Source: Escherichia coli
GTDB lineage: Bacteria > Pseudomonadota > Gammaproteobacteria > Enterobacterales > Enterobacteriaceae
Direction: 5' to 3' (one strand)
NCBI RefSeq assembly: GCF_044647545.1
Contig: NZ_CP172818.1
DNA: 64,000 bases
Shown here piece after piece: positions 7,936 to 33,550 of this stretch; position 1 is the stretch's first letter, and each line of letters begins with the position of its first letter. The notes under the pieces are model-generated. The model did not search any database and was not told the origin of the DNA. It saw only the letters and a program-made list of their open reading frames with translations. A program made the translations under genes and the position numbers.

Positions 7936-8034
7936 GGTATGTCAGGTCTGCCACAGGGCAGACCAACGTTTGGCCCCCTTTAAAAAAAAAAAGACACCAA
8001 TACAACACAACAAAAAAAAAGCGCTGCGCAAAAC

Positions 8035-8610
8035 GTGAGCGCGGTGGTGGCGTATGACTTATCTGCCCAAATGCTGGATGTCGTGGCACAAGCTGCCGAA
8101 GCCGGGCACCTGAAAAATATCGCCACCCGCCAGGGATATGCCGAAAGTCTGCCATTTGCCGATAACGCATTTGATATTGTTATCAGCCGTTATTCTGCCC
8201 ATCACTGGCATGATGTTGGTGCAGCACTGCGAGAAGTGAATAGGATATTGAAACCTGGCGGTAGGCTGATTGTGATGGACGTAATGTCTCCGGGTCACCC
8301 AGTGCGCGACGTCTGGTTACAGACGGTAGAAGCATTACGCGATACCTCTCACGTACGAAACTACGCCAGCGGTGAGTGGTTGACGTTAATCAATGAAGCC
8401 AATCTGATAGTTGATAATTTAATTACAGATAAGTTACCGCTGGAATTTTCTTCATGGGTCGCGAGAATGCGTACGCCAGAAGCGTTAGTAGACGCTATTC
8501 GCATTTACCAACAGAGCGCATCGACAGAGGTGAGAACGTATTTTGCCTTGCAGAATGACGGCTCTTTCACCAGTGATATCATCATGGTAGAAGCACATAA
8601 AGCGGCATAA
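8035..8610 (+). CDS. yafE: SAM-dependent methyltransferase remnant, 5'-disrupted (GTG-initiated ORF lacking motif I)
   Basis: 191-aa ORF begins at post-motif-I region (VVAYDLSAQML...ILKPGGRLIVMD); the ATG at 7939 in the same frame terminates at TAA 7981-7983 after 14 codons. Confidence 0.6.
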   Translation: MSAVVAYDLSAQMLDVVAQAAEAGHLKNIATRQGYAESLPFADNAFDIVISRYSAHHWHDVGAALREVNRILKPGGRLIVMDVMSPGHPVRDVWLQTVEALRDTSHVRNYASGEWLTLINEANLIVDNLITDKLPLEFSSWVARMRTPEALVDAIRIYQQSASTEVRTYFALQNDGSFTSDIIMVEAHKAA

Positions 8611-8612
8611 AT

Positions 8613-8644
8613 AAAAAAGGCACCGGGGGAATCGGTGCCTTTTG
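8613..8644. terminator. Bidirectional rho-independent terminator between convergent yafE and mltD
   Basis: AAAAAA-GGCACCG-GGGGAAT-CGGTGCC-TTTT: hairpin flanked by A-run and T-run. Confidence 0.75.
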
Positions 8645-8657
8645 ATTATCTGATTTG

Positions 8658-10016
8658 TCAGGAATCTGGCATGTTGTTGTTTTTCACAAACAACGTCAGC
8701 TTATCGCCTGGTTGCAGATTCGCAGTGTCGCTGTTCCAGCGCATCACATCTTTGATGTTCACGCCGTGGCGTTTAGCAATGCTTGAAAGCGAATCGCCTT
8801 TGCGCACACGATACGTAATGCTATCGCTGTTGTTTGCCAGTCGCTGTGCGCTACTGCCTGCGCCAATCGTCAAACTTTGGCCTGGCTTCAGCTTAGATCC
8901 GCGCAGTTTGTTCCACTGCTGCAAATCTTTGGTGCTTACGCCGAGACGTGAAGCGATACTTGAAAGCGTGTCGCCAGAGCGTACGGTGTAAACACGGCTG
9001 TTAAGCGGCGTATTGTCGGCAACCAGCGTCGACTGTACAGCAGCAATTTCGCCTGAAGCCAGAGATTCACGCAGTTGATCTGCATGCTTCTTTGGCACCA
9101 TCACGTACTGCGGACCACTTGCGCCCAGCGTGGAGCCTTTCACGCCTGCGTTGAATGTCTTCAGCTTGCTGACGGAAATCCCCGCCATATCTGCAACCTT
9201 CGCCATTTCAACCGGGCTGCTCAGGTGCACACGCGCCAGAGCACGGCTTTCATCGGTCGTTGGCAGACGTACGCCATAACGCTTGCTGTTTTTGAGAATA
9301 TCACTCAATGCCAGCATTTTAGGCACGTACTGCTTCGTTTCCTGCGGCAACGGTAACGACCAGAAGTCCGTGGATTTCCCACGCGCTTTGTTCGTTTTAA
9401 TTGCCTTCATGACCCGACCTTCGCCGCTGTTATAAGCCGCTACGGTCAGAAGCCAGTCGCCGTCAAACATCTTGTTCAGACGCTGCATCATGTTCAGCGC
9501 GGCAGTTGTTGAAGCAACAACATCGCGACGCGCGTCATAATTGCGGGTCTGTTTCAAACCATAATTGCGCCCCGTGCTCGGAATGATCTGCCAGATGCCC
9601 GCGGCATTGGCGCCAGACGTTGCGTGAGGATCAAAAGCGCTCTCCACTATGGGTAGTAGTACCAGTTCCATAGGCATGTTACGTTTTTTAACTTGCCCGG
9701 CTATCCAGTACATATACGGCTCTGCCCGTAAAGTTACATCGTGGAGATAGCTCTTATTGCGTAAATATTTCTGTTTCTGTTCGCGAATCCGGTCGTTTTC
9801 CGGAATTCCCATCTTTAGCTCGTCGCCAATGAAAGCCCACAAGTCACCATCTGGCGCGATAGACGTCCCATCGTCCATCCATCGTGCCTGACTTGTAAAC
9901 TTTGCTGCTTCCCCTTGACCAGCTGCAGAAAGGCTCTGTGCGTGCTGTTGAACGTTGCCGGTGCTCTGGCAACCCACGAGCAGGACAGAGGCGAGTAATA
10001 TCGCTTTTGCCTTCAT
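8658..10016 (-). CDS. mltD: Membrane-bound lytic murein transglycosylase D (SLT domain plus two LysM repeats)
   Basis: 452-aa ORF with lipoprotein signal (LLVGCQS), SLT motif and C-terminal LysM repeats (YTVRSGDTLSSIA.., YRVRKGDSLSSIA..). Confidence 0.92.
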   Translation of the reverse strand: MKAKAILLASVLLVGCQSTGNVQQHAQSLSAAGQGEAAKFTSQARWMDDGTSIAPDGDLWAFIGDELKMGIPENDRIREQKQKYLRNKSYLHDVTLRAEPYMYWIAGQVKKRNMPMELVLLPIVESAFDPHATSGANAAGIWQIIPSTGRNYGLKQTRNYDARRDVVASTTAALNMMQRLNKMFDGDWLLTVAAYNSGEGRVMKAIKTNKARGKSTDFWSLPLPQETKQYVPKMLALSDILKNSKRYGVRLPTTDESRALARVHLSSPVEMAKVADMAGISVSKLKTFNAGVKGSTLGASGPQYVMVPKKHADQLRESLASGEIAAVQSTLVADNTPLNSRVYTVRSGDTLSSIASRLGVSTKDLQQWNKLRGSKLKPGQSLTIGAGSSAQRLANNSDSITYRVRKGDSLSSIAKRHGVNIKDVMRWNSDTANLQPGDKLTLFVKNNNMPDS

Positions 10017-10087
10017 GTGTGTGTCAATAGTTGCTTAAAAGACGACCGATCATAACGGCGAACGGAGCCGATGACAAGAAAGTTTTA

Positions 10088-31038: not shown

Positions 31039-31298
31039 GTTAAGTCTCCTTGTCGATCACCCGCAAAACAGTATTGCAGGTCACAGGGTTAGCAGAAAAT
31101 GTTGTCAACACAAGACAGGCTTGCGAGATATGTTTGAGAATACCACTTTATCCCGCGTCAGGGAGAGGCAGTGCGTAAAAAGACGCGGACTCATGTGAAA
31201 TACTGGTTTTTAGTGCGCCAGATCTCTATAATCTCGCGCAACCTATTTTCCCCTCGAACACTTTTTAAGCCGTAGATAAACAGGCTGGGACACTTCAC

Positions 31299-31757
31299 AT
31301 GAGCGAAAAATACATCGTCACCTGGGACATGTTGCAGATCCATGCACGTAAACTCGCAAGCCGACTGATGCCTTCTGAACAATGGAAAGGCATTATTGCC
31401 GTAAGCCGTGGCGGTCTGGTACCGGGTGCGTTACTGGCGCGTGAACTGGGTATTCGTCATGTCGATACCGTTTGTATTTCCAGCTACGATCACGACAACC
31501 AGCGCGAGCTTAAAGTGCTGAAACGCGCAGAAGGCGATGGCGAAGGCTTCATCGTTATTGATGACCTGGTAGATACCGGTGGTACTGCGGTTGCGATTCG
31601 TGAAATGTATCCAAAAGCGCACTTTGTCACCATCTTCGCAAAACCGGCTGGTCGTCCGCTGGTTGATGACTATGTTGTTGATATCCCGCAAGATACCTGG
31701 ATTGAACAGCCGTGGGATATGGGCGTCGTATTCGTCCCGCCAATCTCCGGTCGCTAA
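31299..31757 (+). CDS. gpt: Xanthine-guanine phosphoribosyltransferase
   Basis: 152-aa [26 protein letters not shown]... PRTase motif [11 protein letters not shown]. Confidence 0.95.
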
Positions 31758-31848
31758 TCTTTTCAACGCCTGGCATTGCCGGGCGTTGTTCTTTTTAACT
31801 TCAGGCGGGTTACAATAGTTTCCAGTAAGTATTCTGGAGGCTGCATCC

Positions 31849-33093
31849 ATGACACAGGCAAACCTGAGCGAAACCCTGTTCAAACCCCGCTTTAAACATC
31901 CTGAAACCTCGACGCTAGTCCGCCGCTTTAATCACGGCGCACAACCGCCTGTGCAGTCGGCCCTTGATGGTAAAACCATCCCTCACTGGTATCGCATGAT
32001 TAACCGTCTGATGTGGATCTGGCGCGGCATTGACCCACGTGAAATCCTCGACGTCCAGGCGCGTATTGTGATGAGCGATGCCGAACGTACCGACGATGAT
32101 TTATACGATACGGTGATTGGCTACCGCGGCGGCAACTGGATTTATGAGTGGGCTACCCAGGCGATGGTGTGGCAACAAAAAGCCTGTGCGGAAGAAGATC
32201 CGCAACTCAGCGGTCGACACTGGCTGCATGCGGCTACGTTGTACAACATTGCTGCCTATCCTCATCTGAAAGGAGATGACCTGGCCGAGCAAGCGCAGGC
32301 TTTGTCAAACCGCGCCTATGAAGAGGCCGCTCAGCGTCTGCCGGGCACGATGCGGCAGATGGAGTTTACCGTACCCGGCGGTGCGCCCATCACCGGCTTT
32401 TTGCATATGCCGAAAGGTGATGGCCCGTTCCCGACAGTATTAATGTGTGGTGGTCTGGATGCGATGCAGACGGACTATTACAGCCTGTATGAACGTTATT
32501 TTGCGCCGCGCGGCATTGCGATGCTGACTATTGATATGCCGTCGGTGGGCTTTTCTTCAAAATGGAAGCTCACCCAGGACTCCAGCCTGTTGCATCAGCA
32601 CGTCTTAAAGGCGCTGCCTAACGTACCGTGGGTAGATCACACTCGCGTCGCGGCCTTTGGTTTCCGTTTCGGCGCTAACGTTGCCGTGCGTCTGGCATAC
32701 CTTGAATCGCCGCGTCTGAAAGCGGTTGCCTGTCTTGGTCCGGTAGTTCATACCCTGTTGAGTGATTTTAAGTGCCAGCAACAGGTGCCGGAAATGTATC
32801 TTGACGTTCTGGCGAGCCGTTTGGGGATGCATGATGCTTCCGACGAAGCGTTGCGCGTGGAGCTGAATCGCTATTCATTAAAAGTGCAAGGATTGCTGGG
32901 ACGTCGCTGCCCAACGCCAATGTTATCAGGCTACTGGAAGAACGATCCGTTCAGCCCGGAAGAGGACTCACGCTTAATCACCTCATCATCTGCTGACGGT
33001 AAATTGTTAGAGATCCCATTTAACCCGGTGTATCGGAATTTTGACAAAGGTCTTCAGGAAATCACCGACTGGATCGAAAAACGATTGTGTTAA
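31849..33093 (+). CDS. frsA: Esterase FrsA (fermentation/respiration switch protein)
   Basis: 414-aa alpha/beta-hydrolase ORF. Confidence 0.93.
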
Positions 33094-33150
33094 AAATTTG
33101 CTAAATTTTACCAATTTGGTAAAACAGTTGCATCACAACAGGAGATTGCA

Positions 33151-33550
33151 ATGACGTTACCGAGTGGACACCCGAAGAGCAGATTGATCAAAAAATTTAC
33201 CGCACTAGCCCGTATATCGTGAAGGTAAGTGCGAAGATAATCGATTCTTTTTCGATTGTCTGGCTGTATGCGTCAACGTGAAACCGGCACCGGAAGTGCG
33301 TGAGTTCTGGGGCTGGTGGATGGAACTGGAAGCGCAGGAATCCCGTTTTACCTACAGTTACCAGTTTGGTCTGTTCGATAAAGCAGGCGACTGGACGAGT
33401 GTTCCGGTAAAAGACACTGAAGTGGTTGAACGACTGGAGCACACCCTGCGTGAGTTTCATGAGAAGCTGCGTGAGCTGCTGGCGACGCTGAATCTGAAGC
33501 TGGAACCGGCGGATGATTTTCGTGATGAACCGGTGAAGTTAACGGCGTGA
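33151..33550 (+). pseudogene. crl: Crl (sigma-S assembly factor) with frameshift: two single-base deletions near codons 20-25
   Basis: ATG at 33151 gives [23 protein letters not shown] (stop 33220-33222); a different frame from 33221 gives [39 protein letters not shown]...KLTA. Region 33208-33220 is 13 nt where an intact Crl needs 15. Confidence 0.8.

Follow-up and report, generated by a model that had tools for sequence, protein, structure and literature searches.

A 64-kb Stretch of Escherichia coli DNA with ST648-Type Alleles on a K-12 Layout: a Probable Reference-Guided Consensus

Introduction

The 64,000-nucleotide stretch of Escherichia coli DNA analyzed here (the window) begins inside rrsH, runs through the genes from dkgB to proA and on to thrW, and ends in the CP4-6 cryptic prophage. 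BLAST places positions 1-64,000 at positions 223,995-289,462 of NC_000913.3, the chromosome of the K-12 strain MG1655. The locus raises the question of how a core region with several departures from MG1655 comes to adjoin a prophage that follows K-12. The original prediction described small lesions in a K-12 layout and proposed either a divergent laboratory lineage or an edited or erroneous assembly. The comparisons described here bear out the second option, as alleles of the type of sequence type 648 (ST648) stand on a K-12 layout, accompanied by insertions in degraded form and by a K-12 prophage left untouched. The alignments argue for an artifactual chimera, probably a reference-guided consensus in which an ST648-type E. 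coli was written onto a K-12 template. The letters of the window are A, C, G, and T only.

Alleles of the Core Region

The window falls into two parts, with coordinates given as positions of the window:

1..37500, plus strand: core segment from rrsH' to thrW, with ST648/FDAARGOS_497-type alleles in the K-12 gene order (three-way column comparison)
37501..64000, plus strand: CP4-6 cryptic prophage, equal to MG1655 262957-289462 apart from one copy of the insertion sequence (IS) IS1 (base-for-base comparison)

Alignment of the whole window to MG1655, which by the terms of the original prediction could have overturned it by finding no difference, does find differences. All seven departures named in that prediction (yafE, the aspV-yafT and gmhA-yafJ spacers, yafQ, the rayT region, the prfH-pepD spacer, and crl) are present at or near the places given for them, and an eighth, the loss of a 129-bp element resembling an enterobacterial repetitive intergenic consensus (ERIC) sequence at 28418/28421, had been overlooked. 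These lesions exist, but they do not stand in an otherwise K-12 sequence: the whole of 1-37,500, from rrnH to thrW, has diverged from MG1655 by 928 substitutions (transition/transversion ratio of 2.3; 2 to 55 per kb), with ∼35 small insertions or deletions besides. The substitutions are for the most part synonymous, and those in proA are spaced at multiples of three. Per block, the core DNA is 95.3 to 98.7% identical to MG1655 and the encoded proteins are at least 99% identical; over 7936-30000, the best K-12 record reaches 97.1%, compared with 98.5% for the best whole-query match. By its substitution pattern, the core has diverged naturally, between lineages, rather than being a damaged K-12 sequence.

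The asymmetry between core and prophage is real, with zero differences from MG1655 in 37,501-53,703 and 54,471-64,000, but its boundary was placed too early. The true discontinuity lies at position 37,500, a few bases downstream of thrW (37415-37490), and not at ∼34 kb, because 37,501-64,000 shows no difference from MG1655 apart from one IS1 copy. Between pepD and proA, 174 non-K-12 columns are still found. The prophage part has one divergent spot, overlooked in the original prediction: 61 differences from MG1655 gather at an IS1 (53704-54468). The window resembles MG1655 in its gene order throughout, in the yafU/yafF and ykfJ/prfH junctions specific to K-12, and in 26.5 kb of base-identical CP4-6. 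It differs from MG1655 in that rayT, the ERIC-like element, the repetitive extragenic palindromic sequences (REPs), and the IS1I copy in crl are gone, IS1B is swapped for another isoform, and both yafE and the prfH-pepD spacer hold junk inserts.

When the unusual prfH-pepD and yafE stretches were used as queries, strain FDAARGOS_497 (NZ_CP033850.1) came up with a set of similar genomes that includes strains named ST648, IMT16316, MS6198, and ECONIH1; together with EC11, these ST648-type chromosomes are the closest relatives of the window for the alleles from rrnH to thrW. The strain names suggest the ST648 label, and IMT16316 belongs to a study set of ST131/ST648. In the three-way comparison of window, FDAARGOS_497, and K-12 over 1-37,500, the window agrees with FDAARGOS_497 and not with K-12 in 899 of 907 variable columns. 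The remaining 8 columns comprise 3 in which the window has the K-12 base, 3 private to the window, and 2 in which all three sequences differ. The homologous blocks of the window are 99.8 to 100% identical to FDAARGOS_497, and at least 40 complete genomes, all of 4.9 to 5.4 Mb, are 100% identical to the window in 23450-28410, where divergence from K-12 is greatest. The window further shares with FDAARGOS_497 the yafQ frameshift, a crl free of IS1, the short gmhA-yafJ spacer, and the absence of rayT and of the ERIC-like element.

The rrnH operon (window 1-4900) is ∼1% off that of MG1655, with a cluster of small insertions and deletions in the 23S-5S spacer, especially at 4696-4754. To judge from the alignment, in which all but about 4 sites are common to FDAARGOS_497, these differences are natural operon variation and not error.

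Lineage-Specific Segments and K-12 Junctions

The window carries the alleles of a natural ST648/FDAARGOS_497-type chromosome but not its gene content. FDAARGOS_497 has a 23.5-kb type VI secretion system (T6SS) island between ykfM/yafU and yafV, an intact rtcB-prfH, a YdjM-like hydrolase gene and an open reading frame (ORF) of 93 amino acids (aa) between prfH and pepD, a 256-aa YafE, ∼220 bp more than K-12 between yafD and mltD, and ∼90 bp at the rayT site. CP4-6 is lacking there, as it is from ST648-type genomes in general, and an integrase remnant and yagU/ecp follow thrW. In 10 of 10 distinct natural contexts of the exact ProA of the window, RtcB, RF-H, and YdjM lie upstream and no CP4-6 lies downstream. 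Three places in the window show how the two layouts meet:

15161..15421, plus strand: K-12-type yafU/yafF junction (ISAs1 fragment) in place of the 23.5-kb T6SS island (FDAARGOS_497 alignment breaks at 2597441/2620935)
28635..28643, plus strand: K-12-type ykfJ/prfH deletion junction with a 9-bp repeat, in FDAARGOS_497-type flanks (sequence alignment)
28418..28421, plus strand: site of the 129-bp ERIC-like element of K-12, empty as in FDAARGOS_497, natural (alignment)

At the ykfJ/prfH junction, 1,019 bp of the rtcB-prfH region of FDAARGOS_497 is missing from the window. Single-nucleotide polymorphisms (SNPs) of the FDAARGOS_497 type are found no more than ∼20 bp away, and position 28641 keeps the base of K-12. 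The fate of a segment follows its size. K-12-only segments of 129 to 891 bp are removed. Of the segments found only in the sample, those of 220 and 816 bp are garbled and those of 1,019 bp and 23.5 kb are absent. The K-12-only prophage, of at least 26.5 kb, is kept verbatim.

The same comparison gives an account of two K-12 alleles. The ykfJ/prfH pseudogene pair of K-12 corresponds to a 1,019-bp deletion in an rtcB-prfH region that is intact in other E. coli strains, and the deletion lies between imperfect 9-bp repeats (TACCCGGCA and TACCCGACA; FDAARGOS_497 2634233-2634241 and 2635260-2635268). The 207-aa YafE of K-12 is a deletion allele relative to the 256-aa class I S-adenosylmethionine methyltransferase of FDAARGOS_497-type genomes. 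It lacks ∼220 bp between two CGCTGC repeats (window 7939-8610; MG1655 231926-232549), so that the native start is gone and the gene is fused to the sequence just after the yafD terminator hairpin.

Degraded Stubs at yafE and prfH-pepD

Two of the sample-only segments are represented in the window by shortened, degraded stubs:

7975..8021, plus strand: yafE stub, 48 bp standing for the ∼220-bp yafD-yafE segment that K-12 lacks (FDAARGOS_497 alignment)
29165..29523, plus strand: 359-bp degraded version of the 816-bp region between prfH and pepD, which holds the YdjM-like hydrolase gene and the 93-aa ORF (alignment to FDAARGOS_497)

The yafE stub is A rich, with runs of A11 and A9, and brings an in-frame TAA into the K-12 yafE frame. 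It sits at the left-normalized insertion position relative to K-12, with the K-12 bases intact on either side. The longer stub makes the prfH-pepD spacer ∼360 to 400 bases longer than that of MG1655 (29165-29577). It starts at 29165-29173 with a mix of K-12 and FDAARGOS_497 bases and ends in T10 A T5 A14 TC A7. Both stubs have the same architecture: the left end is a recognizable FDAARGOS_497 copy with scattered losses of single bases, mostly G and then T, the register is lost stepwise, and a poly-A/T end is followed by an abrupt return to a perfect match. The junk reads as an ordered subset of the true sequence. Homopolymers of at least 9 nucleotides (nt) occur in the window in these two stubs only, compared with none in 73 kb of MG1655 and a single T9 in 85 kb of FDAARGOS_497.

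The long stub decays from its left anchor. Taken in order, its 50-nt chunks correspond to 49, 61, 67, 95, 172, 130, and 192 nt in the true sequence, and the argument for decay rests on this chunk-wise consumption and not on the longest-common-subsequence test, which asked whether the junk is a pure subsequence of the true insert. The latter gives 339 for the long stub against a shuffle mean of 320, which is modestly above, and does not discriminate for two short stubs, where the shuffles also reach 100%. A 62-nt junk string found no match in a scan of the GTDB species representatives.

Natural Alleles and Private Errors

Comparison with FDAARGOS_497 separates the smaller departures from MG1655 into natural alleles and differences private to the window. 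The features concerned are as follows:

13070..13121, plus strand: aspV-yafT spacer with two natural 1-bp changes relative to K-12 (FDAARGOS_497 agrees here)
20186..20238, plus strand: gmhA-yafJ spacer of the FDAARGOS_497 type (alignment)
21994..22203, minus strand: yafQ with a -1 frameshift at 22100 and a 69-aa product, natural (FDAARGOS_497 copy annotated 'frameshifted')
23427..23445, plus strand: rayT locus (alignment)
33209..33227, plus strand: crl at the IS1I point of MG1655, IS1 absent, natural (alignment)

The original prediction had read three single-base losses in short homopolymers as long-read consensus errors. This explanation fails for the -1 in yafQ and the T7-to-T6 change in the aspV-yafT spacer, which are natural and occur in FDAARGOS_497; only the two single-base deletions in crl are private to the window. 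Block 8022-15161 has only one gap relative to FDAARGOS_497, at 14550, and none at 13070 or 13121. The exact 69-aa YafQ product is found on at least 1,000 contigs. Seen against these genomes, the aspV-yafT changes, the yafQ frameshift, and the short type of gmhA-yafJ spacer are natural alleles of the sampled lineage, and rayT, the ERIC-like element, and the IS1 in crl are naturally absent.

Some of these features also hold private differences. The gmhA-yafJ spacer measures 53 bp in the window and 57 bp in FDAARGOS_497, compared with 148 bp of REPs in K-12, and the window has private deletions of TTT and G there (20194/20207). At the rayT locus, about 10 to 19 bp stands in place of the 891 bp of K-12 (rayT and REPs), and the ∼90 bp of FDAARGOS_497 sequence is squeezed to ∼19 bp. 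In crl, two private 1-bp deletions, GG to G and TT to T (33209 and 33217), lie within 20 bp of the IS1I site of MG1655 and shift the frame; neither occurs in 8 other crl contexts, which include other naturally frameshifted alleles. The private single-base or short changes are completed by T7 to T8 at 14550.

The placement of these private differences is not even along the core. Three from FDAARGOS_497 fall in the rRNA operon, and outside it only T7 to T8 at 14550 and an SNP at 16793 lie away from K-12 breakpoints. All others stand within ∼25 bp of K-12 structural breakpoints (15423, 20194/20207, 23442-23445, 28641, the stubs, and crl 33209/33217). An assembly made independently of K-12 would have no reason to err at K-12-specific breakpoints, so that this placement points to a K-12 template. 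The inserts in yafE and prfH-pepD, the squeezed rayT junction, the small gmhA-yafJ losses, and the two crl deletions are artifacts, as are the yafU/yafF and ykfJ/prfH junctions of the K-12 type and two repeats described below, the composite ISAs1 fragment and the converted IS1.

Two of these loci deserve a remark of their own. The -1 allele of yafQ is natural and widespread, and FDAARGOS_497 carries it as an annotated pseudogene; dinJ (22206-22466) is intact beside it, which leaves an orphaned antitoxin in the FDAARGOS_497-type lineage. For crl (window 33150-33290), other public assemblies show independent frameshifts, mostly by slippage in an A7 run (A7 to A6 or A5). These alleles fit recurrent crl inactivation and are distinct from the two private deletions of the window.

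CP4-6 and Repeated Sequences

CP4-6 stands at thrW with the IS pattern of K-12, as in a K-12 lineage, the IS1B copy excepted. The switch to K-12 sequence coincides with the exact end of the homology between FDAARGOS_497 and K-12, just after thrW. The presence of CP4-6 is itself most probably an artifact. Within the prophage, the yagE-yagH region (56000-64000, the xylonate part of CP4-6) has a G+C content of 0.61 to 0.63, compared with ∼0.50 elsewhere in the window; this stretch is identical to MG1655 and is a known prophage segment of foreign composition.

One copy of IS1 breaks the identity with MG1655:

53704..54468, minus strand: IS1 at the IS1B position, a 762-bp isoform (site-by-site comparison)

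The 61 differences from MG1655 lie in and beside this element. The element agrees with the IS1 of p4, a 6.85-kb plasmid of strain EC11, at 60 sites, including a 6-bp deletion, and with K-12 at 6 sites; the EC11 chromosome is of the FDAARGOS_497 type and 100% identical to the window over 23450-28410. One changed base, at 53704, lies 3 bp outside IS1 in the unique afuB' flank. Misplaced reads that overhang the element would explain this flank change more easily than gene conversion. The 762-bp isoform (window 53707-54468) is rare and ∼8% diverged from IS1B; only 6 of 20,395 records carry it at 99% identity or more, 4 of them plasmids of ∼6.85 kb (EC11 p4, MS14385, FJ_Ec_21, and YZ_2_2).

A second repeat, the 260-bp yafF/ISAs1 fragment, is ∼95% identical to the yafF of K-12. 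Its best matches among 5,426 complete genomes reach 97.4% and are ISAs1 copies at other loci. By this search, the fragment is a composite found in no sequenced genome.

Proposed Origin of the Window

Mapping-based pseudo-genomes and assemblies polished against a reference keep uncovered reference verbatim, write in the SNPs of the sample, apply short deletions, and lose long insertions; multimapping reads overwrite repeats, and errors gather at structural breakpoints. The window shows the same features. The template stands verbatim where the sample has no homologue, insertions are lost or degraded at reference anchors, private errors cluster at template breakpoints, and template repeats are overwritten by paralogous sample sequence.

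A multistep origin can be proposed. Reads or contigs of an FDAARGOS_497-like E. coli would have been aligned to a K-12 template or draft, with the consensus written in K-12 coordinates. In homologous places, sample alleles would replace the K-12 bases. K-12-only segments that a single alignment can span as a deletion, of no more than ∼0.9 kb, would be removed, which would cover rayT, the ERIC-like element, the REPs, and the IS1 in crl. Sample-only segments of up to ∼0.8 kb would be written as insertions on the preceding reference base and decay from left to right, and longer ones, namely, the 1 kb of rtcB-prfH and the 23.5-kb T6SS island, would be lost. CP4-6, too long to bridge and without sample coverage, would remain as untouched reference, and the template repeats IS1B and the yafF ISAs1 fragment would be overwritten by paralogous sample sequence. 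This origin assumes that single alignments tolerate gaps of up to roughly 0.9 to 1 kb. The software mechanism and the size threshold are thus a reconstruction from the observed allele pattern, breakpoints, decay, and identity values.

The contig on which the window lies offers a further point. A 601-aa ORF whose C terminus runs across the garbled rayT junction is found on exactly one NCBI contig, of 4,499,902 bp, and the longest carrier of the 90-aa crl fragment of the window is a contig also of 4,499,902 bp. This contig is shorter than MG1655 (4,641,652 bp), which fits a K-12 template minus deletions, and ∼0.4 to 0.9 Mb below the ST648-type chromosomes. None of the RefSeq complete E. coli genomes searched matches the window.

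Several points weigh against such a consensus. The pipeline is deduced from the sequence alone, and no specific tool that can be named explains why the insertions lose G (and T) preferentially; among reference-biased consensus sequences, G-poor stubs with poly-A/T ends are unusual and assignable to no particular program. ST648-type strains may carry paralogues of the CP4 family, and these left no change in the prophage besides the IS1. In addition, de novo assembly of a mixed culture of K-12 and an ST648-type strain could give several of the same features.

Alternative Explanations

This mixed sample is the main rival, though an unlikely one. Here, a culture or library of K-12 and an ST648-type strain would have been assembled de novo, with haplotypes picked at each bubble and insertions garbled by polishing with mixed reads. 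Chimeric alleles and layout would follow, the perfect K-12 prophage would stem from real K-12 reads, insertion columns would be partly dropped, and repeats would be converted by the majority strain. The SNP calls are nearly purely of the FDAARGOS_497 type, however (899 to 3), and the outcome at each segment follows the size of the insertion or deletion, not chance. The degradation is progressive from the left anchor instead of uniform, and the contig is shorter than both parent genomes.

A real hybrid, in which K-12 acquired at least 37 kb of ST648-type DNA up to thrW by conjugation or transduction and sequencing errors were added, has very little probability. The thrW/attL boundary is a plausible homology edge for a crossover, and purifying selection acts on the core alleles, which are natural. 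Against this, donor alleles flank each missing donor insertion (T6SS, rtcB-prfH, hydrolase, and yafE) on both sides within ∼20 bp, which would require paired crossovers at no fewer than five sites, and the stubs are degraded copies of donor DNA, not K-12 sequence. The ISAs1 fragment is in no sequenced genome, and the IS1 conversion includes a change in the nonhomologous flank. Equally improbable is the broader form of this explanation, a faithful laboratory or natural hybrid or an intact transfer of CP4-6 into an ST648-type strain, with repeated fine-scale crossovers that preserved the structural alleles of K-12 and with the odd inserts taken as local sequencing noise.

An origin from a divergent laboratory lineage of K-12, with homopolymer errors from long reads, is refuted by the three-way comparison and can be practically dismissed, in spite of the K-12-like gene order, the MG1655-identical prophage, and the location of both crl deletions in 2-nt runs, since such a lineage should show core identity to MG1655 well above 99.9%, whereas the core is 1 to 5% off every K-12 genome with ∼930 mostly synonymous substitutions, is 99.8 to 100% identical to natural ST648-type genomes, and holds natural alleles in the single-base changes of yafQ and aspV-yafT. 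Two further candidates were rejected. A natural strain carrying CP4-6 is contradicted by the complete genomes, 0 of 5,426 of which join these alleles with CP4-6, and by the ProA contexts, all 10 of which are without it; against a generated or deliberately edited sequence stand the unique ORFs on a deposited NCBI contig.

Implications

No new biology is implied by a K-12-templated consensus. The finding serves mainly as a data-quality flag: an NCBI contig of chromosome size seems to be a pseudo-genome built on a K-12 template. Its gene content, with CP4-6, without the T6SS island, and with "pseudogenes" in yafE and crl, probably comes from the template rather than from the strain. Studies of pangenomes, prophage distribution, pseudogenes, or recombination would be at risk if this contig were included. 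The signature, consisting of reference-identical islands bounded by the ends of homology, left-anchored decay of insertions, and errors at template breakpoints, may be used to recognize similar deposits.

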